Shown one piece after another: positions 10,912-24,485 of a stretch of 43,660 nucleotides of DNA; position 1 is the first letter of the stretch, and every line of letters begins with the position of its first letter. The notes below the pieces were generated by a model. That model made no database searches and was not told where the DNA came from. It saw only the letters and a list, made by a program, of their open reading frames with translations. The position numbers and the translations under genes are program-made. This DNA comes from Candidatus Micrarchaeota archaeon (GTDB taxonomy: Archaea > Micrarchaeota > Micrarchaeia > Micrarchaeales > CABMGC01): assembly GCA_021848095.1 (NCBI GenBank), contig JAJZMZ010000024.1:1-43660 (forward strand), read 5' to 3'.

Positions 10912-10943
10912 GTATTATTGTTTTTATATAAATCGGTGTTTTT

Positions 10944-12011
10944 TTGATAAGTGAAGCGTTTAATGGCTCAGTTAAATATCTTCAAATAATGAATGAAGAG
11001 GGAGAAATAGATCAGACAGTTATGCCACAGGACATAAGTGATTCTCAGATTTTAGAGATGTATAAAGGAATGATGCTTGCAAGAGCTGTCGATGCTAAAG
11101 TCCTTAGTCTTCAAAGACAAGGACGTGCAGTAACATATGCACCTTTACTAGGTGAGGAAGCGACACAGATAGGAACAGCAATGGCTATGAGAAAACAAGA
11201 TATCTTTGTTCCAGCTTTTAGACAACATGGAGTATTTATAGAAAGAGGAGTTCCAATGGACTCATTATTCTTATACTGGAGAGGTTTTGAGGAAGGAAAT
11301 GTTTTTCCAAAAGAGCTCAATGCATTTCCAATAATAGTTCCCGTTGCAACGCAGATGCCACATGCTACAGGAATTGCTTTTGCACAACGATATCTTAAAA
11401 AAGACTCGGCCGTTTTAGTTTATGTCGGAGATGGAGGAACTTCAGAAGGAGATTTTTATGAAGCAATTAACTTCGCAGGCGTTTGGAAAGTACCACTAAT
11501 AACAATAATAGAGAATAATCAATGGGCAATTTCACTACCTAGAAATGAACAAACAATGGCAAAAACATTAGCTCAAAAAGCTATAGCAGTAGGTATCGAT
11601 TCTATTCAAGTAGATGGAAATGATGTTTTAGCTGTTTATAAAGCAACTAAAGATGCAATAACAAACTCAAGTAAAGGCCCAATGATAATAGAGTGTGTAA
11701 CATACAGAATGGGTTTACACACTACATCTGATGACCCTACAAAGTACAGAACAGATATTGAGGTAGAAACATGGAAAAAGAAAGATCCTATTGAACGTGT
11801 TAAAAAGTATTTAGTTAAAAAAGGATTATGGAATGATGCAAGAGAACAACAAGAAACTGAAGCAATTTCTAAATTAGTTGATGAATCTGTAGAAAAAGCT
11901 GAAAGATTTAAACCAGATCCTAGAAGTATGTTTAGTACAGTTTACAGCTTTATGCCACAAACACTTCGTGAAGAGTTTGATGAAGCTGAGGCGAATAACT
12001 TTTGGCAGTAG
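10944..12011 (+). CDS. pdhA: 2-oxoacid (pyruvate/branched-chain) dehydrogenase E1 alpha subunit
   Basis: TPP motif GDGGTSEGDFYE...ENNQWAIS; YRMGLHTTSDDP loop; LQRQGR. Confidence 0.95.
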   Translation: MISEAFNGSVKYLQIMNEEGEIDQTVMPQDISDSQILEMYKGMMLARAVDAKVLSLQRQGRAVTYAPLLGEEATQIGTAMAMRKQDIFVPAFRQHGVFIERGVPMDSLFLYWRGFEEGNVFPKELNAFPIIVPVATQMPHATGIAFAQRYLKKDSAVLVYVGDGGTSEGDFYEAINFAGVWKVPLITIIENNQWAISLPRNEQTMAKTLAQKAIAVGIDSIQVDGNDVLAVYKATKDAITNSSKGPMIIECVTYRMGLHTTSDDPTKYRTDIEVETWKKKDPIERVKKYLVKKGLWNDAREQQETEAISKLVDESVEKAERFKPDPRSMFSTVYSFMPQTLREEFDEAEANNFWQ

Positions 12012-12019
12012 GTGTTTTT

Positions 12020-12985
12020 ATGCAAATGAATATGGTTTCTGCACTTAACAATGCATTAGATATAATATTGAAAGAAAATGACAAAGCGTTAATTTTAGGA
12101 GAAGACGTAGGAAAAGACGGTGGTGTTTTCAGAGTTACTGAAGGTTTATTAGAAAAGTATGGTGAAAATAGAGTAGTTGATACACCATTAGCTGAATCAG
12201 GAATTATTGGAACATCTATAGGGATGGCACTTTCAGGTTTACACCCTATATCAGAGATTCAGTTCGCAGGTTTTATGTTCTTAGGTTTTTCACAATTAAT
12301 AAATCACGCTTCTAGATATAGAACTAGAACACGATCTAATATGAGTTTACCAATGGTTGTAAGAACACCTGTAAGTGGAGGTGTCAGAACACTAGAACAT
12401 CACTCAGATAGTCCAGAAACGTACTACTCGCACATTGGTGGTTTAATAGTTGTGGAACCATCTACACCTTATGATGCAAAAGGTTTGCTTATAAAAGCGT
12501 CTAGAATGAATGATCCAGTTGTATTTTTAGAGCCAACAAAACTTTACCGTTTATTTAGAGAAGAAGTTCCTGAAGAACCATATGAAGTTACAATAGGAAA
12601 AGCAAAGGTAGTGAGAGAGGGCAGTAAATTAAGTATAGTTACATATGGAACTATGGTTCCGGTAGTTAAAAGTGTTGTTGAAAAGAAAAAGCTAGATGCT
12701 GAGATAATTGATTTGAGAACTATAAATCCAATAGATGAAAAAACTATTTTAGAAAGTGTTAGTAAAACAGGAAGAGTTGCCATTGTTCACGAAGCATCAT
12801 TAAGTTTTGGCGTAGGAGCGGAGATAGCAGCAAGAATTTCTGAAAAAGCGCTTTATAAATTAAATGCGCCTATTGTAAGAGTAGGTGGAAATAGTTTCCC
12901 ATATCCATATCCAGGATATGAAAACTTCTATGTTCCAAATGAAAAGAAGATATCTTATGCATTGGATAAACTGTTAAAGGGTTGA
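12020..12985 (+). CDS. pdhB: 2-oxoacid dehydrogenase E1 beta subunit
   Basis: GEDVGKDGGVFRVT, DTPLAESGI, EIQF, HHSDS. ATG at 12020 follows a GGTG RBS. Confidence 0.95.
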   Translation: MQMNMVSALNNALDIILKENDKALILGEDVGKDGGVFRVTEGLLEKYGENRVVDTPLAESGIIGTSIGMALSGLHPISEIQFAGFMFLGFSQLINHASRYRTRTRSNMSLPMVVRTPVSGGVRTLEHHSDSPETYYSHIGGLIVVEPSTPYDAKGLLIKASRMNDPVVFLEPTKLYRLFREEVPEEPYEVTIGKAKVVREGSKLSIVTYGTMVPVVKSVVEKKKLDAEIIDLRTINPIDEKTILESVSKTGRVAIVHEASLSFGVGAEIAARISEKALYKLNAPIVRVGGNSFPYPYPGYENFYVPNEKKISYALDKLLKG

Positions 12986-12988
12986 GTT

Positions 12989-14353
12989 ATGAAAGAGTTA
13001 AAATTTGTTGATGTTGGAGAAGGAATAACAGAGGGAAATATTAAAAAATGGTTGTTCAAAGACGGAGATTCGGTAAAAGAAGATACAACTATAGTACAGA
13101 TAGAAACTGACAAAGCAGTAGTAAATATACCTGCACCAGTATCTGGTAAGTTAAAGATAGTTGCAAAAGAAAATACAACACTTAAGACAGGAGATACAAT
13201 AGCATTTGTAGGAGATGATGTTTCTACAACAACACCTCAACAAACAACACAAGGACCATCAAGTAGTGTTATCAGTAAGGCAATACACGAACAAGAAAGT
13301 ATCAAGGAGTTTGGTTTTGCGCCGGATTCTGATGCTGCAATTAATGCTCCTTCAACTAGCACAGCACAGCCACAAAAAACTACGACACAACCGCAAACAA
13401 ACATAAATCAACAACAAACAAATACAATTCAACCACAAATGAATACAACAAAGCAACAACAAAAAACAGAGGTCATTGCAACACCAGGCGTAAGAAAACT
13501 TGCAAGAGACTTGAATATTGATATAAATACAGTAAAAGGAACAGGTCCTAATGGAAAGATACTTGAAAATGATGTTAGATCCGCTTCAATAAGTACAAAT
13601 AAGAAAACATCAATCCCTAAGTTTTCAGAAACATTAGAAAAGTCACACACAGAAGATATTGAAAGAGTTCCATTAACACAAACAAGAAAAGCAATAGCAA
13701 AGAATATGGAGTTATCATGGTCAATACCAAGAGCAGTGCATATGGATCACATAGATGTAACAAATCTTTACGATTTAGTAAAAAGGGAAAAGGAGAACAT
13801 GGCTAAAAGAAATGTAAAGCTTACTTTCTTACCATTTATAATTAAGGCAACAATAGAAGCAATTAAAGAGAATCCACGATTTAACTCTAGTTATGATCAT
13901 GAAAAACTTGAGATAATATTAAAAAAATATTACAATATAGGATTAGCAGCACAAGGTCCTGATGGATTAAAGGTTGTAGTTATAAAAAATTCTGAGAAGA
14001 AGAATATTTCAGATATTGCAAAAGAGATACAAATGTTGTCAGAGAAAGTTAAAAAAGCAGAGGTTTCATTAGAGGATATGTCAGACTCAACATTTACTAT
14101 AACCAATATAGGAAGTTTAGGAGGAGGAGATTTTTCAGTCCCAATGATAAATTATCCTGAAGTTGCAATATTAGGAATACATCTAATAAGAGATACACCT
14201 GTAGTCAAAGATGGTGAGATTCAAATAAGAAAAATACTTCCATTTTCACTTACATTTGATCACAGAGTAGTTGATGGAGCTGATGCAGTAGCTTTTGGTA
14301 ATGCACTGAAAAGATATCTAGAGGATCCTGATTTTCTAGAGTTAATTGCTTAG
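12989..14353 (+). CDS. pdhC: Dihydrolipoamide acyltransferase E2
   Basis: Single lipoyl domain (ETDKAVV), E3-binding domain (ATPGVRKLAR..GTGPNG), catalytic DHRVVDGA. Confidence 0.96.
   Translation: MKELKFVDVGEGITEGNIKKWLFKDGDSVKEDTTIVQIETDKAVVNIPAPVSGKLKIVAKENTTLKTGDTIAFVGDDVSTTTPQQTTQGPSSSVISKAIHEQESIKEFGFAPDSDAAINAPSTSTAQPQKTTTQPQTNINQQQTNTIQPQMNTTKQQQKTEVIATPGVRKLARDLNIDINTVKGTGPNGKILENDVRSASISTNKKTSIPKFSETLEKSHTEDIERVPLTQTRKAIAKNMELSWSIPRAVHMDHIDVTNLYDLVKREKENMAKRNVKLTFLPFIIKATIEAIKENPRFNSSYDHEKLEIILKKYYNIGLAAQGPDGLKVVVIKNSEKKNISDIAKEIQMLSEKVKKAEVSLEDMSDSTFTITNIGSLGGGDFSVPMINYPEVAILGIHLIRDTPVVKDGEIQIRKILPFSLTFDHRVVDGADAVAFGNALKRYLEDPDFLELIA
13367..13471 (+). repeat. Imperfect 21-bp (7-aa) tandem repeat x5 in the E2 linker
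   Basis: QPQKTTT / QPQTNIN / QQQTNTI / QPQMNTT / KQQQKTE. Confidence 0.6.
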
Positions 14354-14361
14354 TTGATTTT

Positions 14362-15741
14362 ATGGTAATGGGCTCTATACCTGAAAAAGTAAATCTTGCA
14401 ATAGTAGGTGGTGGTGTAGGAGGTTATGTCGCGGCTATACGCGCCGCTGAGCTAGGTCTTTCAGTAATTATAATAGAAAAGGACAAGATGGGTGGCCATT
14501 GCTTAAACTATGCGTGTATACCGTCTAAAACACTATTGCACATTGCTGATATATACCACAAAGCAAAGAACTCACAAAACTTCGGAATAGAAGCTGAGCC
14601 AAAAATAAATGCACAAAAAATATTAGAGTGGAGAATGGGCGTTTCTGAAAAGCTAGAAAAAGGTGTAGAATTTTTATGTAACTCTAATGGAATAGAGATA
14701 GTAAAAGGCGGAGCAACATTCATATCCTCTCAAAAGTTACAGATAACTAATGGAACTGAGATTGATTTTGATACCGCAATAATAGCAACCGGTTCTGTCC
14801 CAGTAGAGTTAAAGGGCTTTGAGTTTAATGACTACATACTTGACTATAAAAAAGCATTAATGCTTTCAACAATACCTAAAACATTAACAATAATAGGAGC
14901 AGGATATGTTGCAGTAGAGTTAGCTACACTTTATGCTAAGCTTGGTGTTTCTGTTTCTATACTTGCACGATCAACTATTCTATCACATTTTGATCCTGAA
15001 GCTGTTTCAATAATAGAAAAAAGCCTTGAAAAGTTAAATGTTAAAATTTACAAAAACTCAGTTCCTGAGTCACATACACAAACCTCAATTAAATTGAAGT
15101 CAGGAGAAGAAATACCGCACGAGTTAGTTGTTGTAGCAGTAGGATTAAAACCATACACTGATAATTTAGGTTTAGAAAATACTAAAGTAGTTGTAGATCA
15201 AAAAGGTTTCATAACTGTCGGACAATCGTTAAACACAGCAGATGAAAAGATATTAGCAATTGGAGATGTTATAGGGGAACCGATGCTTGCACATAAATCA
15301 ATGAGACAAGGGGTCATCGCGGCAGAGGTAGCTGCTGGAAAAAATGCCGGTTTCGACAATGTCGTAATACCAGCAGTTGTATTTTCAGACCCAGAAATTG
15401 GAATAGCAGGAGATGTTTCTGAAAAAACAGGAATTTACATTAAAAAGTTCCCATTAACTGCACTTGGAAGAGCAATAGCAATGAACAAAACAGATGGCTT
15501 TGTTAAGATTGCATATGATAAAAATAAAGTAGTGAAAGGTATTGAAATTGTATCGTCTGATGCAAATGCAATGGTTGCTGAAGCTGCGTTAGCCATAGAG
15601 ATGGGTGCAACATTAGAAGACATTGCAGATACAATACATCCTCATCCAACATATACTGAACAAATACAGGAAGTAGCAGAAGCAGGTTTAGGAAGACCAA
15701 TACATTTCTTTTATGGAAAAAATAATGAAAATGGTAAATAA
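14362..15741 (+). CDS. lpdA: Dihydrolipoamide dehydrogenase E3 (NADP-type fingerprint)
   Basis: FAD GGGVGG, redox disulfide GGHCLNYACIPSK, C-terminal HPHPTYTE; position in the E1/E2 operon. Confidence 0.95.
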   Translation: MVMGSIPEKVNLAIVGGGVGGYVAAIRAAELGLSVIIIEKDKMGGHCLNYACIPSKTLLHIADIYHKAKNSQNFGIEAEPKINAQKILEWRMGVSEKLEKGVEFLCNSNGIEIVKGGATFISSQKLQITNGTEIDFDTAIIATGSVPVELKGFEFNDYILDYKKALMLSTIPKTLTIIGAGYVAVELATLYAKLGVSVSILARSTILSHFDPEAVSIIEKSLEKLNVKIYKNSVPESHTQTSIKLKSGEEIPHELVVVAVGLKPYTDNLGLENTKVVVDQKGFITVGQSLNTADEKILAIGDVIGEPMLAHKSMRQGVIAAEVAAGKNAGFDNVVIPAVVFSDPEIGIAGDVSEKTGIYIKKFPLTALGRAIAMNKTDGFVKIAYDKNKVVKGIEIVSSDANAMVAEAALAIEMGATLEDIADTIHPHPTYTEQIQEVAEAGLGRPIHFFYGKNNENGK

Positions 15742-15743
15742 GT

Positions 15744-16511
15744 ATGAACGTATCTCTTTTCACTAAAAAAAAGTATCCAGAAATAGAAAGAAAGATAAGA
15801 AGTAACTTTGAGGTAGTAAAAAACGGAGAGATTTGCATAGCAATAGGAGGAGATGGTACATTTATTCATGCAGCACAAAAAACTTCCTGTCCCATACTTT
15901 TAATACGGGATAATACTGATGATAGTACAGGCTATTACTCAGATTTAGGAGTAGATAGAATTGATGAAGTAATACATTTATTAAAAAATAAAAATTATCA
16001 TGTTGAATTATTAGGTAAAAAACTTCTCTTAACGTATAAAAATAAAAAATATTATGCAATTAACGAGTGTTACTTATCAAACAGTGTTGGGGAAGTAAGC
16101 TTCAAAGTTTATGAGATCATAAACAACAAGCGTCAACATATATACCCATTTGTTGTAGGAGGAGATGGAGTTATAATAAGTAGTAAAATAGGTTCTACAG
16201 CTTATAATAGAAGTGCAGGAGGGCCTATACTTCTTGAGAATAATCTTTTTTGTATTACATTTATTAATCCCGATGGACCTTATAGAAACGCGCTTGTAGT
16301 AAACTCAAATAAAACAATTGAGATAGAGATTTCAAAGTATGAAGGAGTTCTAAGGTATGATAACTTTACTGTTGGTACTATTAGAAAAGGGGATTCTTTT
16401 AGAGTGAAATCCTCTGAAAAAGAAATTAAAATAATTAAGTTAAATGGAATTTACGAAACGTTCGGGGATAAATTAAAAAGAGTAATAAAAAGCAAGATGC
16501 AAAACGCATAG
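15744..16511 (+). CDS. nadK: NAD kinase
   Basis: GGDGT, NE motif (AINE), DGVIISS..GSTAYNRSAGGP. Confidence 0.9.
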   Translation: MNVSLFTKKKYPEIERKIRSNFEVVKNGEICIAIGGDGTFIHAAQKTSCPILLIRDNTDDSTGYYSDLGVDRIDEVIHLLKNKNYHVELLGKKLLLTYKNKKYYAINECYLSNSVGEVSFKVYEIINNKRQHIYPFVVGGDGVIISSKIGSTAYNRSAGGPILLENNLFCITFINPDGPYRNALVVNSNKTIEIEISKYEGVLRYDNFTVGTIRKGDSFRVKSSEKEIKIIKLNGIYETFGDKLKRVIKSKMQNA

Positions 16512-16549
16512 AATAAAGTAAACTTTTTATTTTTTTATTAAATAAATAT

Positions 16550-17182
16550 TTAAGTTGTTTGAGAACTTATTATATTCACTAGTGCAGGAATTGTGTAATT
16601 TGTAACTGAAGATGCGCTATAATTTCCAGTTGATAAAATAACTGCAAAGTAATTTTTATAATATCCTAAAATAAGAAATGATTTTACATTTCCATTATAA
16701 ATACGATAAAGTTCAGAATAATTTACGCCATTGTATGTTTTATTGTAAATTGGAGAGTATTGATGTGTTATTAACTCGTGATTTAAAGTGCTGTGATAAT
16801 TATTTGAAGCAGATGTATTAAGAATTGATATTAACTCTAATACCGAGTTAGACCCATAATATGCTACCTTCACTCCGCTTGTTATGTTTCTATTTGAGAT
16901 GTTTAAGTTATATAATTGGTTAATAAGTGTAATATTTCTAATTGTACTACTCCTCGTTAAGTTAAAATAATGATATGAACCTGAACCAACAGCAGAGCTA
17001 AGCTTGACATTTATTGGAACATTATTTATACCGTTTGAACTTTGATGTTGTACATTGTAATTAGTGCTAATCACATATGCAATTATTGAAAAAATAACTA
17101 TAACTAAAATTACAGCAATTGCAACATTCTTTTTAGAGTGTTTTGCTTTTGAATCAATATTGTTTATATTTGAGTTATACAT
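16550..17182 (-). CDS. Membrane-anchored Asn/Ser/Tyr-rich surface protein
   Basis: ATG at 17182 with GTGA RBS; basic residues then one TM (NVAIAVILVIVIFSIIAYVI); many N-x-S/T sequons. Confidence 0.7.
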   Translation of the reverse strand: MYNSNINNIDSKAKHSKKNVAIAVILVIVIFSIIAYVISTNYNVQHQSSNGINNVPINVKLSSAVGSGSYHYFNLTRSSTIRNITLINQLYNLNISNRNITSGVKVAYYGSNSVLELISILNTSASNNYHSTLNHELITHQYSPIYNKTYNGVNYSELYRIYNGNVKSFLILGYYKNYFAVILSTGNYSASSVTNYTIPALVNIISSQTT

Positions 17183-17186
17183 AATA

Positions 17187-20100
17187 TCACGGTAAAGGTT
17201 GCGCATTTGTAGATATTGCAATTCTTTGATAAGTCATATCGCCTAATCCGTTTGAACCATAGCCAAATTCAGTTCCGATAGGCAATGTGAATGTGCCCGT
17301 ATTAGCAAAGGAAACATTAAACTCGCCACTAGGTCCATTTTCAAATGTAGAGTTATAAGTAATTAGATCATAAATACTGTATACTGAACCTCCATTAGTA
17401 ACACTAGCAATACCAGAATATAAGTACTTACCATCCGGAGATACTATCATTTCTCCAGGTCCGCCAGTAAAACAACCACCACCATTGGCACCTGAATCAT
17501 AGTTTATTTTAACTATTTTTTGAAGTTGTGTATTTATCGTTGCAATTGCGCAATTAGAAAATGGAGTTGAATAACCTACAAAAACAAATGTTCCGTTAGT
17601 TGTAGATGTCATAGCATCTCTTTTGTTGTTGTAAATGGTATCATAGAAATTAAAATGAGGAAGTGATATCGTACTGAAAGCATTTGTATTCTTATTGTAT
17701 ATTGCAACTTCTCCGTTTTCTGGACTTAACATGTAAACATATGGTGTATTATTAACTGGAACTACAGGAGGATTTGTTAAAATTGAGTTAGTTGATTGAG
17801 ATAATAATCCCGAATCAGTTACTGTCCAATAACTATAAGTTATAAACTCATTTGGACTAGGTGGCGAAGAACAACTAAAAGCTCCGGCATCTCCAGTGCC
17901 CGCGGCGGTTTGAGTATCACTATTCCCATTTGCATTGTATGTTGAAGCTATAGTATCATTTAATGGATAATTGAAAACTATTTGAGCTGCCGTTGCGCCC
18001 ATACCTCCAGGAGCAGGACCAGGAGCATCACTATAATCATCTTGAAGTTGAGTTTGATAAGATAATACAGTCATATCGTTATTTTTTTCAAGCATTCCAT
18101 TTATATAAACAGTAGAAGTTGATGCAAAACCATAATTTGCTTCAGCAGCACAAACAGAACCAGAAGATGAGGACATAGATGAAAAAGCATCTATTGTTTG
18201 ATAAGGGGTTAGATATAAGTTTCCTGCAGCGCAAGGACCTCCTGAAGGGCAGTTTGCAGCTTGAGAATTACTAGTTGTTGCAGCCATACCAGATAAAATA
18301 ACATTTGTTGGAAACACTTGGGATAAAGTTTGAGCATAAAACTCGTAATTTACACTTCCTGAAGGGTATATTGAGAAGAAATTTCCATTTGGTTGTGAAA
18401 AATCAGCCACCATTGGTAAATAATACGTACTTGTTTCAGGAGTCATTGGATAACCAGAGTTATAAAAGTATGAAATTTGCGCTTCTGGCGCTACAATATT
18501 TGAGTTAACAATATTTTGTGTAGTATTAGCAGTAGTCAATAACGCTTGTCCATCATTTATAGTATTGCCAGTGTAGTTATAACCTCCAATTCTTAAGTTA
18601 TTTCCATCATAAAGTAATGCAGTAGGAGAAAATGTAGATGGTAATGTAACATTTTCTTTGTTTATTAAGTATGCACTGCTTATAATACTAACCTGTCCAA
18701 AGTTTGTAGAACCTGGATTATAATAATTTCCTGATTTCTGAGCGCCTGTTGTGTATATATTGTAGTTATTTTGTGGTGCGTATACAATGTCTGCATTTCC
18801 ATAAGTTTTAGGAGTATTTAAGTTATTTTCTAGGCCCAGAACACCATCTTGAGAACCTGATTTAAGATTATAAATTTCATAAAAGTTTCCAGAACCTACC
18901 GTTGTGCTTACATATAAATCAGTACTATTTGCACTTGAAACAAAGTTATATTGTGAGCCCGTAGCTAATGGAATAGAATCGGGATAATTAACGTAGGGAT
19001 CAGTGGATCTGAAGTTCTGAACACTCTTTACACTGGAAACGCCACTTCCACTTACTGGAAATGTGTATACGGTTTCGTTTGATAGTACAACATAAAGATC
19101 AGTAAGATTACTACTTAATGTTGCACCAACAGTATAGTTACTTAAAGATAATGCTACGTTTGTGTAGTTTATCTTTAACGATGTTGTGTTAAATGATGCT
19201 ATTGACGAGTTGTATTCAGATGAAGATGTTCCATTGACCATTGCAAAGTACATAAAGTTTCCATCTGTTACCATATTTATTATTCCAGAAGCAGAACCTA
19301 TTGAAGGTCCGAATTTGTTTATTAATATATTTGCTGCCATTGAGTTATTTTTGGTGGTATTTAATACATATAAATTAGTTGAGTTTGAAATAAAAGCATA
19401 ATTACCTAACATTATGAAACTTGTGAAGTAAGGATTATATGCTGCATCTGAAGCCGATGATCCGATAATATTAGTTAAGTTTTTAACTTGTATTTTATTG
19501 TAAGTGTAGAATAAATTAGAGGATGTCATAGCATCTTGCAAATCAGTTTTATTGATTATTACTAAATATGGGCCTTCTGGTGTATTAAAAGCTGATGATG
19601 TCCCTCCTATTAAGATGTAAAGTGAACCTGATGAGTTAAACTGCATTGAATAGCCATCTCCAGAAGCTACTCCTTGAATTATAGTCGTATTTGCAGTTGA
19701 GTTTGCTATTAAAGCTTCCTTAACTACTGATTCAGTAGATGTATTTATTATTACTAGAGCAGCTGTGAAACTGCTATTTCCATCATTATAAAACTTAGAT
19801 AAGTCATAAACATAACCGTCTCTAGAAACTGTAATGTAATTGTGATTAGATTCATAGTATGAGCTACCTATACTGTTCAACACATTGTTGTGGTACATAT
19901 CGCTTACTAGCCCTATCGTTTGTCCACCGTTATTATTGCTGTAGAAATAAGTATCCTTTGATGGATAGGTATAAGCTGGAACTGGATAATAGAAACCTGT
20001 TTGTTTATTGAAGTTTGCCGTTTCCACCGTATTGTCACTCATAGTTAAGGTGTTTGTTGATGCTGTTCCTGCATAACATCCTATACCAGTACAAGTCCAA

Positions 20101-21266
20101 TCATTAAATTCATAACCAGAAGCAGGAGTTTCAGATATTATTACTGTGTTTCCAGCTTGATATGAACCACTTGGTGGAGAGGCAGTTCCCCCATTTGTTG
20201 GATTAACATTAGTTGTTAAGGTGTAAGTTGCAATTGATTGTTGGAAGTTTGCTGTTTCTACAATATCTGAGTTCATTGTTATTGTTGCTGATTTTGTAGT
20301 TCCAGAGTAACAACCCGTTCCTGTACAAGACCAACCCGTAAATATATAACCTGATGCAGGAGTTTCTGAGATTGTAACTTGTGTTCCAGAGTAATAACTT
20401 CCTGAAGCAGGAGTCACCGTTCCTCCATTTGATGGAACTGAGTTTGTTGTTAAAGTATAAGTTGCTAATTGGTTGAAGCTTGCCGTTTCTACTATATTAG
20501 CATCCATAATTATTGTCGGATTAGTAGATGTTCCTGAGTAACAACCCGTTCCAGTACAAGTCCAATCGTTAAATGAATAACCCGTACTTGGAGTTTCTGA
20601 GATTGATACTGATTTCCCACTGTTATAACTTCCTGAAGTTGGAGATGTCGTACCTCCATTTGTTGGAGAAGGATATGTATTTAATGTATAAGTAGGCAAC
20701 GTTGTTGTTGTACTTAATAAAGAATTATATTGATAAATATATGTCAAACCGCTTCCTGAAGTTGTTAATGAAACTTCTTGTTTACTATTACTATTACAAT
20801 TTTGAGAGATACATTCAGAGTATGTTAAGTAAAACTGTGGACTTATCTCAGAACCTATTGGAAGTGTAAGACCAGTTACTGAGATAGTACATGTAATACG
20901 TTCACCTTGAAGAGCTGTAGAAGGTTGACAACTACCTTGATAATACTGTGAGTTAGGAGTAAACTTAATTGAAAATGAAGAAGAGGAAAAATATAAGGGT
21001 TTATTGACATTATTTGAAAACTCAATTAATGCAGATGTTCCAATTGAGTTAGAGTTTATCAAAAGTTGATAACATGGAAACTCTGGAGAGATATAACAGT
21101 ATGACGATGCATATGTTGTTTGATTGCTCGAGTAGTAAAAGTAAATGACGAGTACTGCAATTAATATTATTATTGCCCATGAGTAACTAAGAACATATTC
21201 TATTGCGGATTGCTGTTTTGAAGTTTTTTTTGTAGTGCCGTGTAGTATTTTTTTAGAAGATGCCAT
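17187..21266 (-). CDS. Giant (1359 aa) surface protein: class III (pilin-like) leader, 3 InlB-B/Flg_new-like repeats, probable beta-propeller
   Basis: N-terminus KQQSAIEYVLSYSWAIIILIAVL; repeats TYTL...GGT..P.SGSY..G..V.ISETP..GY.F..W.CTG.GCY.GT; C-terminal VSRDG / VSPDGKYLY YncE-like blades. Confidence 0.8.
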   Translation of the reverse strand: MASSKKILHGTTKKTSKQQSAIEYVLSYSWAIIILIAVLVIYFYYSSNQTTYASSYCYISPEFPCYQLLINSNSIGTSALIEFSNNVNKPLYFSSSSFSIKFTPNSQYYQGSCQPSTALQGERITCTISVTGLTLPIGSEISPQFYLTYSECISQNCNSNSKQEVSLTTSGSGLTYIYQYNSLLSTTTTLPTYTLNTYPSPTNGGTTSPTSGSYNSGKSVSISETPSTGYSFNDWTCTGTGCYSGTSTNPTIIMDANIVETASFNQLATYTLTTNSVPSNGGTVTPASGSYYSGTQVTISETPASGYIFTGWSCTGTGCYSGTTKSATITMNSDIVETANFQQSIATYTLTTNVNPTNGGTASPPSGSYQAGNTVIISETPASGYEFNDWTCTGIGCYAGTASTNTLTMSDNTVETANFNKQTGFYYPVPAYTYPSKDTYFYSNNNGGQTIGLVSDMYHNNVLNSIGSSYYESNHNYITVSRDGYVYDLSKFYNDGNSSFTAALVIINTSTESVVKEALIANSTANTTIIQGVASGDGYSMQFNSSGSLYILIGGTSSAFNTPEGPYLVIINKTDLQDAMTSSNLFYTYNKIQVKNLTNIIGSSASDAAYNPYFTSFIMLGNYAFISNSTNLYVLNTTKNNSMAANILINKFGPSIGSASGIINMVTDGNFMYFAMVNGTSSSEYNSSIASFNTTSLKINYTNVALSLSNYTVGATLSSNLTDLYVVLSNETVYTFPVSGSGVSSVKSVQNFRSTDPYVNYPDSIPLATGSQYNFVSSANSTDLYVSTTVGSGNFYEIYNLKSGSQDGVLGLENNLNTPKTYGNADIVYAPQNNYNIYTTGAQKSGNYYNPGSTNFGQVSIISSAYLINKENVTLPSTFSPTALLYDGNNLRIGGYNYTGNTINDGQALLTTANTTQNIVNSNIVAPEAQISYFYNSGYPMTPETSTYYLPMVADFSQPNGNFFSIYPSGSVNYEFYAQTLSQVFPTNVILSGMAATTSNSQAANCPSGGPCAAGNLYLTPYQTIDAFSSMSSSSGSVCAAEANYGFASTSTVYINGMLEKNNDMTVLSYQTQLQDDYSDAPGPAPGGMGATAAQIVFNYPLNDTIASTYNANGNSDTQTAAGTGDAGAFSCSSPPSPNEFITYSYWTVTDSGLLSQSTNSILTNPPVVPVNNTPYVYMLSPENGEVAIYNKNTNAFSTISLPHFNFYDTIYNNKRDAMTSTTNGTFVFVGYSTPFSNCAIATINTQLQKIVKINYDSGANGGGCFTGGPGEMIVSPDGKYLYSGIASVTNGGSVYSIYDLITYNSTFENGPSGEFNVSFANTGTFTLPIGTEFGYGSNGLGDMTYQRIAISTNAQPLP
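20010..20693 (-). repeat. Three intragenic tandem repeats, period 231-234 bp
   Basis: Units start at 20693, 20462 and 20228; the similarity is visible at DNA level (e.g. gagtaacaacccgttcc, acaagtccaatc, ggagtttc). Confidence 0.9.
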
Positions 21267-22689: not shown

Positions 22690-23751
22690 ATGAACTCAAT
22701 TAAATTTATAAAATTAGGATTAACTGCGCTTAAAAGTAATTTTTCTAATTTAGCTAAGCCGTACAAATTAACTTTTTCCATATCGTACTGGTGTCAGTCA
22801 CGTTGTTTAACTTGTAATATATGGCAGATTAAACCAGTAAATGAACTTACACTTGAAGAGATTAAAGAAGTTGCAGCTAAAAATAATTACTTAAAATGGA
22901 TAGAGATAACAGGAGGTGAGCCGTTTTTAAGAAAGGATATTGTTGATATTGTAAAGGCTTTCCACGAAAATTGTAAAGACCTTTTTGTACTTACTATGCC
23001 AACAAACTCATTATGTAATCATGATATGGTAGAAAGTAAATTAAAAGAAATTTTATCTTTAGGAATACCTAAAGTTTCCATAACTCTTAGTTTAGATGGG
23101 TATAAAGAACTTCATGATAAGATAAGAGGAATACCTGGGAATTATGATAAAGTAGTAGACATGGCAAAAAGATTAAAAAAATTAAAAGAAGAATACAAAA
23201 ACTTATTTTTTATATTTGGATATACTGTTAGCAAGTTCAATCAAGGTTCACTCGAAAAAACCATAGAAGAAGTAAAAAAAGAGTTGCAATGGGTAACACA
23301 TAACGACTTCCATATAAATGTTGGTCAAATATCAGATAGCTATTACAAAAATGGTGAGTTAGACATTAGAGCTGAAAAAACAGAGGTAGCTAAAGAAATA
23401 GATTTTATAATTAAAAAAAGAAAATTTGAGTTTGGTGCAATACCTATAATAGAAAATGTATTCCTGAAAAAGTTATACAATTACGTTTTAACAGGAAACT
23501 CACCTATGAAAAGTAGAAGTTTGGATGCATCTCTTTTTATGGACAGTTATGGAAATGTATATCCTTCAATAATGTGGGGCAGAATAATAGGAAATATAAG
23601 AAATTATAATTACTCTATAGAAAGTATGTGGCATAATGTCGATGCAGAAGAAGTTAGAAAGATAATAAATGAAGGTAAAGAACCTTCATGTTGGACAGCT
23701 TGTGAAGCATATCAAAGTTTAGTCGGGGATATGAAAAGTTTTATTTTTTAA
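22690..23751 (+). CDS. Radical SAM protein with degenerate SPASM/twitch domain
   Basis: CQSRCLTC (CxxxCxxC), TGGEPFLR, SLDG..HD.IRG, C-terminal GNVYPS...IGNI...CWTACE. Confidence 0.9.
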   Translation: MNSIKFIKLGLTALKSNFSNLAKPYKLTFSISYWCQSRCLTCNIWQIKPVNELTLEEIKEVAAKNNYLKWIEITGGEPFLRKDIVDIVKAFHENCKDLFVLTMPTNSLCNHDMVESKLKEILSLGIPKVSITLSLDGYKELHDKIRGIPGNYDKVVDMAKRLKKLKEEYKNLFFIFGYTVSKFNQGSLEKTIEEVKKELQWVTHNDFHINVGQISDSYYKNGELDIRAEKTEVAKEIDFIIKKRKFEFGAIPIIENVFLKKLYNYVLTGNSPMKSRSLDASLFMDSYGNVYPSIMWGRIIGNIRNYNYSIESMWHNVDAEEVRKIINEGKEPSCWTACEAYQSLVGDMKSFIF

Positions 23752-24485
23752 TTACTTGAAAGAAAGTTGTTTACTATATTTGCTGTTTCTTCTGGATTTG
23801 AGTAATGAGAGGTGTGTTTTGAGTTTTTAATAATTGAAACTTCACTATTTTTAATATCTTCATTGAAGATGTATGCAAATTTTTTATCTATTGTAGTGTC
23901 ATTTTCTCCCCATAATATTAATGTTTTTGAAGAGATTTTAGAAAGATCTTCCTTTGTTACTTGAGAAGAGCTAAACTCGTCGTCAATAATACTTTTTAAC
24001 ACATGTTCATTTGCATTAATCATTAATGCTTTAGCAAGTAAATCTTTTTTATATTGTTCTCTTTTATCAGTACCAACTACAACTTCAAAAAAATCTTTCA
24101 GACCACCTGCATCTTCAAGAACAAGTTTTTTTATATTTTGATTATTTATTGCAAGGATAGAAGCTATCCAACCCCCGTAAGAATGGCCCATTACTGAATA
24201 ATTTGTTATGCCTTCTTTTTTAATAATTTCTTCTATTATTTCTTTTTGATAAAGAACGTGATAATCTATATTTGGAGCTTCTGATTCACCATGTCCAAGC
24301 AAATCAGGCAAAATTAAAGTAAGACTTTTAGGAAGATACTCTACAAATTTTATCCAACTTTTAGAACTTGCAGCAAGTCCATGTATTAGTACAAGTACAT
24401 CACTTCCTTTTTTATTTGTTCTATAAAATATTTTACCATATTTAGTTTCTATTGTTTTACTTTCTAACTCTTCAAAAACGCTCAT
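23748..24485 (-). CDS. Alpha/beta hydrolase (esterase/lipase-like)
   Basis: HGLA, DLLGHGES, nucleophile GHSYGG, WGEND acid, KH.SH. Confidence 0.92.
   Translation of the reverse strand: MSVFEELESKTIETKYGKIFYRTNKKGSDVLVLIHGLAASSKSWIKFVEYLPKSLTLILPDLLGHGESEAPNIDYHVLYQKEIIEEIIKKEGITNYSVMGHSYGGWIASILAINNQNIKKLVLEDAGGLKDFFEVVVGTDKREQYKKDLLAKALMINANEHVLKSIIDDEFSSSQVTKEDLSKISSKTLILWGENDTTIDKKFAYIFNEDIKNSEVSIIKNSKHTSHYSNPEETANIVNNFLSSN

Follow-up and report, generated by a model that had tools for sequence, protein, structure and literature searches.

A Micrarchaeota operon combining a 2-oxoacid dehydrogenase complex, an NADP-type E3 motif, and an NAD kinase gene

A stretch of 43,660 nucleotides from a Candidatus Micrarchaeota archaeon (contig JAJZMZ010000024.1 of assembly GCA_021848095.1), here called the window, was analyzed at its full length; it is contig C7 of a reduced, 0.81-Mb genome in 41 contigs with an estimated completeness of 91%. 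A five-gene operon on its plus strand, E1α-E1β-E2-E3-nadK, is predicted to encode the genome's sole lipoate-dependent 2-oxoacid dehydrogenase complex, of the pyruvate dehydrogenase (PDH) or branched-chain type, together with an NAD kinase. The E3 carries an NADP-type cofactor motif that occurs clade-wide in the order and is rare elsewhere, and most genomes that have both genes place nadK no more than 2 kb from the operon. Read from sequence features, a natural NADP+-accepting 2-oxoacid dehydrogenase complex with its own operon-encoded NAD kinase appears plausible and is partly supported, and we judge the case for it to be evenly balanced. Such a complex may supply NADPH in nature.

In textbook accounts, 2-oxoacid dehydrogenase complexes produce NADH, and to our knowledge NADP-linked complexes come just from protein engineering and laboratory evolution. 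A literature search found no natural NADP-dependent PDH complex, just the engineered enzyme or an unrelated oxidoreductase from Euglena, and no paper joining Micrarchaeota and NAD kinase; supplementary annotation tables lay outside this search.

The operon and its E3 cofactor site

The preliminary description of this DNA had placed pdhA, pdhB, pdhC, lpdA, and nadK in one orientation with tight spacing, and the open reading frame (ORF) list together with the Pfam and NCBIfam identities bears this out, the five genes lying head to tail. E1α (positions 10944 to 12011), the thiamine pyrophosphate-binding subunit, matches PF00676 (292 bits) and exceeds the cutoff of TIGR03181 (444.8 bits versus 411.35), whose name, PDH E1α, holds at family level only, the predicted substrate being pyruvate or branched-chain 2-oxoacids. 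E1β (12002 to 12985, with ATG 12020, its first ATG, as the likely start) contains PF02779 and PF02780 and scores 267 bits against NF006667, under the cutoff of 321. The dihydrolipoamide acyltransferase E2 (12989 to 14353) has lipoyl (PF00364), E3-binding (PF02817), and catalytic (PF00198) domains and carries a Thr/Gln/Pro-rich linker. The dihydrolipoyl dehydrogenase E3 occupies positions 14362 to 15741, and nadK, the last gene of the operon, occupies positions 15744 to 16511 (PF20143, 44.1 bits versus a cutoff of 23.7). Gaps measure 8 bp between E1α and E1β (a 10-bp overlap if TTG 12002 is used), 3 bp between E1β and E2, and 8 bp between E2 and E3, and the E3/nadK junction reads TAA-GT-ATG, confirming the 2-bp gap first described. 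The G+C content is 27 to 35% across the window with no shift at the operon, and the closest protein homologues carry the source names Candidatus Micrarchaeota, Micrarchaeia, and Micrarchaeaceae archaeon.

The whole E3 protein scores 418.8 bits against TIGR01350 (cutoff, 408.8), the solved structures that it matches best are those of E3 enzymes (1EBD; E, 6e-101), and its translation has the redox-active CLNYAC (CxxxxC) and a C-terminal HPHPTYTE (HxxxxE). An identity as the mercuric reductase MerA was considered and rejected, with 295 bits against the MerA equivalog (cutoff, 454) and no C-terminal Cys pair. Scans with PF07992 and tblastn found no second E3 in the genome, and no GcvH scored over the cutoff in this 91%-complete genome; because there is one E1/E2/E3 set, one E3, and no GcvH, the E3 presumably serves the 2-oxoacid complex alone. 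A lipoate ligase gene for E2 lipoylation (PF03099 match) lies on contig C18 and is the orthologue of the LplA encoded near the operon in relatives.

The NAD(P)-binding β-α-β motif of E3 spans residues 179 to 211 (14896 to 14994, plus strand; GAGYVAVELA...SILARSTILSHFD) and ends in ILA202-R203-S-T-I-L-S-H209-FD. It was aligned, along with the E3s of five relatives, with the E. coli K-12 lpd and gor products, dihydrolipoyl dehydrogenase (Lpd) and glutathione reductase (Gor). At the seven aligned positions reportedly exchanged between E. coli Lpd and Gor by Perham's group, the window E3 is glutathione reductase-like at four and Lpd-like at none. Lpd Glu205 corresponds to Gor Val197 and to Ala202 of the window E3, Lpd Met206 to Gor Arg198 and Arg203, and Lpd Gly187 and Gly191 to Gor Ala179 and Ala183 and to Ala184 and Ala188; Lpd Phe207 (Gor Lys199) falls on a one-residue deletion, Lpd Asp208 (Gor His200) is Ser204, and Lpd Pro212 (Gor Arg204) is Ser208, followed by His209. 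The canonical signature of NAD+-specific E3s is absent, with Ala202 in place of the acidic residue at the end of β2 and GAGYVA in place of GxGxxG, and the signature of glutathione reductase and MerA is present, with GxGxxA (A184) and an Arg directly past the β2 hydrophobic residue (R203). When the 48-residue motif alone was compared with all solved structures, NADPH-dependent mercuric reductases ranked first, ahead of any E3, and the motif of Tn501 MerA aligns without a gap (VLARNT against ILARST). The NADP-type fingerprint originally read in this E3 is confirmed, and it falls on the very residues by which E. coli Gor differs from Lpd.

A study of E. coli Lpd (PMC8406311) shows what changes at this position can do. 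There, E205A or E205G alone gains NADP+ activity, of which the wild type has none; the NADP/NAD ratio of kcat/Km in these two variants is 0.6 to 1.9, the value for NAD+ falls from 830 to 5 to 13 per s per mM, and E205V with four further changes gives a 100-fold preference for NADP+. Because Glu, which in canonical E3s keeps out the 2'-phosphate of NADP, is replaced by Ala, and this Ala is followed by Arg, as in glutathione reductase and mercuric reductase, and by a second basic residue five to six positions on, the window E3 would be expected to use NADP+, either preferentially or alongside NAD+.

In the mechanism that we propose, E1 would decarboxylate a 2-oxoacid, most likely pyruvate to judge from the family name of E1α, and acylate lipoyl-E2, and E2 would form acyl-CoA. 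E3 would re-oxidize dihydrolipoyl-E2 via the CLNYAC disulfide and FAD and pass the electrons to NADP+, with Ala202 admitting the 2'-phosphate of NADP+ and Arg203 and the basic residue at 208/209 binding it, and the oxidation of pyruvate or another 2-oxoacid would thereby yield NADPH. NadK, translated from the same predicted message, would phosphorylate NAD+, keeping NADP+ available and matching its supply to the complex.

Distribution of the motif and linkage to nadK

The 120 best homologues of the window E3 span 63 to 100% identity, and all 120 have Ala at the Glu position. The residue after this Ala is Arg in 106 and His in 14, the third Gly of GxGxxG is Ala in 91 and Ser in 29, and the basic residue lies at position 209 in 116 and at position 208 in 4. 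Throughout families f1 and f2, which belong to the same order, the motif is present in every extracted E3 except those of two genomes with a degenerate site. These two genomes, G016 (L040:3986-5356, minus strand) and G128 (L041:3989-5359, minus strand), retain the full E1α-E1β-E2-E3 operon; their E3 is 48% identical and has NDDYAA instead of GxGxxG/A and SEK past β2, which makes the dinucleotide site look degenerate, and their nadK lies 27 to 29 kb from the operon.

Outside this clade, the motif is rare. A cluster survey took the best 150 representatives at 50% identity from 1.84 billion proteins, and among the 147 that were full length, 135 have Glu or Asp at the position and 12 do not, 7 of those 12 with Arg next. 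Among the matches listed from 80 named genome loci, mostly bacterial, Glu is found in 68 of 71 readable motifs, the three non-Glu loci being two Micrarchaeota and one uncultured archaeon; all three Thermoplasmatota E3 genes among the matches listed have Glu. Other Micrarchaeota families have E3 sites that are Glu-type (f9, f10, f17, and f19), further cases of ARS, or YRG..R (L042, L049, and L060), QRS (L044 and L048), or HRS (L097), an unusually high diversity of the E3 cofactor site within Micrarchaeota. On a quick SH-aLRT tree of E3, f1 and f2 form a clade (support, 100) beside an ARS clade of f11 (support, 92), with the other non-Glu types elsewhere.

To count linkage, the positions of E3 in 301 genomes of the phylum were compared with those of the NadK matches to a clade-specific profile, and gene orders were confirmed by BLAST on the retrieved loci. 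Both an ARS-type E3 and a canonical NadK (E < 1e-80) are held by 36 published genomes, and nadK lies no more than 2 kb from the operon in 32 of them, which argues for an adjacency beyond chance. In 24 genomes it directly follows E3 in the same orientation; in 4 (G101, G022, G125, and G159) one gene intervenes, and nadK lies 0.4 to 0.75 kb 3' of E3; and in 4 that share a genus (G010, G076, G179, and G240) it is divergent, 0.15 to 1.7 kb 5' of E1α. The four others (G019, G040, G094, and G124) have nadK on a different contig. Since the genes flanking the E1α-to-nadK block vary among genera, the block has stayed together through rearrangements.

Many genomes without a canonical nadK have, elsewhere, a diverged NadK-like ORF of ~260 amino acids (L079:301-1098; L080:176-961, minus strand; L082:289-1053; L083:160-960, minus strand) that Pfam detects barely or not at all. 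It has VGGDGT, with DFFVER replacing NE and GSTGYYSY replacing GSTAYxxSAGG, and may either stand in as NAD kinase or phosphorylate another substrate.

NADP+ use weighed against other readings

The chief alternative to an NADP+-accepting complex is an ordinary NAD+-linked PDH or branched-chain 2-oxoacid dehydrogenase complex whose E3 prefers NAD+, with the adjacency of nadK due to compaction and inherited synteny and no functional coupling. We consider this unlikely, but a number of observations speak for it and weigh against NADP+ use. Cofactor preference follows imperfectly from a motif, and a preference of this E3 for NADP+ is what we infer from it: of the three basic residues in the Gor 2'-phosphate site only Arg203 is in register, Gor K199 being deleted, H200 and R204 replaced by Ser, and the basic residue shifted by one. 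In PMC8406311, Lpd E205A retains NAD+ activity equal to its NADP+ activity. The same source gives a cost of more than 60-fold in the NAD+ kcat/Km of E. coli Lpd upon loss of the Glu, and because of this cost an E3 specialized for NAD+ would not be expected to fix a site of the Ala-Arg and GxGxxA type across 120 of 120 homologues.

Gene context also speaks on both sides. Tight spacing is the rule across the window, the nadK linkage is limited to one order, and because the genomes are kin, independent events are fewer than the count of 32 of 36 suggests. Neither PF20143 nor the clade profile matched a NadK in 11 published genomes of the same family that share the E3 motif, two of them, G038 and G042, consisting of a single contig (one flagged genome was left out of this count); G079 and G202 gave a weak, half-length NadK-like match only. 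The sister family f2 has E3 in 59 of 75 genomes and PF20143 in only 23 of 75, and the ARS-type E3s of f11, part of f8, and f29 are unlinked to nadK, the genes lying on other contigs. Since the motif also occurs in NadK-less relatives, it is independent of an adjacent or detectable nadK. The preliminary description had treated motif and gene context as two independent signals, a view refuted by the fixation of the motif across the order with or without an adjacent nadK; as for the co-occurrence that it proposed to check, the linkage is kept in 32 of the 36 genomes, and the motif is also present in the 11 NadK-less genomes and in the unlinked families. Against mere synteny, nadK has remained beside the operon across no fewer than three arrangements and changing flanks. 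Furthermore, five NadK-less relatives retain a thioredoxin reductase with the NADPH-type motif HRRDxFR, so the want of a recognizable nadK does not show that NADP is absent. The argument that NadK loss in relatives disproves NADP use was rejected on this ground.

The predicted NADPH consumers of the genome are a thioredoxin reductase (TIGR01292, 398 bits), with the NADPH motif VHRKDSLR (HRK..R), and an HMG-CoA reductase. No G6PD, PntB, or STH-like flavoprotein was found in the 91%-complete genome. The check whether other NADPH sources are lacking went against the NADP+ reading, as an isocitrate dehydrogenase-family protein, two malic-enzyme-like ORFs, and a glutamate dehydrogenase are candidate producers; the isocitrate dehydrogenase-family gene, a putative NADPH source, adjoins the citrate synthase gene. 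An oxidative metabolism would fit other genes of the window, namely, those for succinate dehydrogenase, fumarase, proline dehydrogenase, and subunits of an A-type ATP synthase. A complex-I NuoD-like gene is located at C8:35859-36608 of G000, but a Pyr_redox_2 scan showed neither NDH-2 nor an STH-like flavoprotein; the route of NADH re-oxidation bears on the cofactor to be expected of the complex. The NADP+-dependent complex first proposed for this locus keeps its genes, spacing, motif, and conserved linkage as support and is weakened by signals that are not independent, by other candidate NADPH sources, and by the register of just one of the three basic residues.

An E3 that has dual cofactors or acts mainly in reverse, with NADPH reducing the E2 lipoyl group for thiol or peroxide defense and NADPH production secondary, is improbable in our estimation. 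A comparable defense chain, Lpd-E2-AhpD-AhpC, works in this way with NADH in mycobacteria. The NADP-type motif would suit a flow of electrons in the reductive direction, the one taken by glutathione reductase and MerA, and sequencing runs containing DNA of the locus are labeled as metagenomes of mine drainage and sediment, a possible source of the DNA. Against a reductive role, the full E1α/β-E2-E3 operon is conserved, often with lipoate ligase near, and the complete set fits an oxidative complex feeding the tricarboxylic acid (TCA) cycle, of which the genome has citrate synthase, succinate dehydrogenase, and fumarase; neither AhpD nor peroxiredoxin was seen near the operon, although no search was aimed at either.

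That the last gene of the operon encodes a diverged member of the NadK/diacylglycerol kinase fold with another substrate, in which case the logic of NADP+ supply would fail, is very improbable. Points in its favor are that the N-terminal domain is ~33 residues shorter than that of the NadK of a neighboring family, that PF01513 (the NadK N-terminal domain) is not detected at E ≤ 0.001, and that none of the NCBIfam NadK models reaches its cutoff (best, 90.5 bits versus 260). Against it, the GGDG, NE, and GSTAYxxSAGGP motifs are invariant across 17 aligned sequences, PF20143 is over its cutoff, and the protein is the single NadK candidate in a genome with an NADPH-type thioredoxin reductase.

Neighboring features, related systems, and implications

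A TATA-like AT-rich box (TTTATATAAA; 10923 to 10932, plus strand), read by eye in the 374-bp, AT-rich spacer 5' of E1α, is a possible archaeal promoter element. The start candidates of E1α are TTG 10944 and ATG 10989, and because the box sits merely 12 bp 5' of TTG 10944, the true start may be ATG 10989, or the transcript may be leaderless. The oligo-T stretch at 16521 to 16540 (plus strand), between the nadK stop and a convergent gene ending at 16550, is the likely transcript end.

Three genes recur near the operon in related loci. An α/β hydrolase of ~245 amino acids with a GHSYGG motif is encoded 3' of E3 in the same orientation at 17 of 40 loci (L005, L008, L009, L012-L020, L032, L034, L036, L038, and L039), between E3 and nadK in one of them; the window has the orthologue (23748 to 24485, minus strand; tblastn identity, 38%) 7 kb downstream and on the opposite strand. 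An FNR-like oxidoreductase (FAD_binding_6 and NAD_binding_1; ~245 amino acids) is encoded just 3' of the operon in 8 loci (L015, L017, L018, L019, L021, L033, L036, and L039), directly after nadK in L033, and has its orthologue in the window genome on contig C1. Lipoate-protein ligase (LplA-B_cat, 190.9 bits) is encoded a few kilobases from the operon in 10 of 40 loci, including L003, L005, L006, L007, L009, L014, L032, and L039. Downstream in the window, a 1,359-amino-acid ORF (17187 to 21266, minus strand) has an N-terminal hydrophobic segment and Thr/Ser/Asn-rich repeats of ~75 amino acids with the pattern TYTLTT...GYxFxxWxCTGxGCY and probably serves the episymbiont as a surface or adhesion protein.

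The closest of the known systems, the 2-oxoacid dehydrogenase (OADH) operon of Thermoplasma acidophilum reported by Heath et al., has the same E1α-E1β-E2-E3 order and heterotetrameric E1α/β type and likewise an E2 with one lipoyl and one peripheral-subunit-binding domain and a lipoate ligase encoded elsewhere, whereas the locus described here has nadK as a fifth gene and an E3 without the Glu of the NAD motif. Bocanegra et al., as cited in PMC8406311, are said to have engineered an NADP+-reducing E. coli PDH complex in 1993. The closest precedent for the cofactor site is E. coli Lpd in its engineered or evolved form, in which this position, too, goes from Glu to a small hydrophobic residue; in the window E3, Arg comes next, as in the engineered variant, and the Gly-to-Ala changes along the GxGxxGxxxG helix correspond. 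The window E3 is in contrast natural, fixed across an archaeal order, and paired with nadK, and instead of the Gor-derived Lys/His/Arg trio it has the one-residue deletion together with a basic residue at position 208/209. The closest natural NADPH sites are those of E. coli glutathione reductase and Tn501 mercuric reductase, which have GxGxxAxxxA and a hydrophobic residue-Arg pair past β2 in common with the window E3, and the loop of Tn501 MerA is of the same length; unlike these enzymes, the window E3 reaches the TIGR01350 cutoff, with the MerA and glutathione reductase models far under theirs, and has the His-Glu C-terminal motif and an E1/E2 operon setting.

NADP(H)-using E3s are reported to occur in anaerobic, glycine-utilizing bacteria such as Clostridium cylindrosporum and Eubacterium acidaminophilum, in which they serve glycine cleavage or glycine reductase rather than an E1/E2/E3 2-oxoacid complex. 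They would set a natural precedent for NADP use by an E3-type enzyme, although their cofactor was not confirmed by PMC3519856. The pyruvate:NADP+ oxidoreductase of Euglena carries out the same net reaction, from pyruvate to acetyl-CoA and NADPH, but is unrelated, being a PFOR fused to a P450 reductase-like domain and lacking lipoate.

If the complex does accept NADP+, evolution would have taken the engineers' route, from Glu to Ala or Val plus Arg, and the operon would offer metabolic engineers ready parts for a pyruvate oxidation that yields NADPH. Metabolic reconstructions of DPANN archaea, in which the supply of NADPH usually goes unexplained, would have to change as well. A bolder proposition, which we advance tentatively and with some doubt, is that throughout the order the single 2-oxoacid dehydrogenase complex runs on NADP+, that entry into the TCA cycle is the main generator of NADPH, that nadK sets the pool, and that this is the first natural NADP+-specific complex of the PDH type. 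Were NADP+ use order-wide, the YRG..R, QRS, and HRS motifs of other Micrarchaeota would point to repeated or ancestral NADP use by the E3 family.

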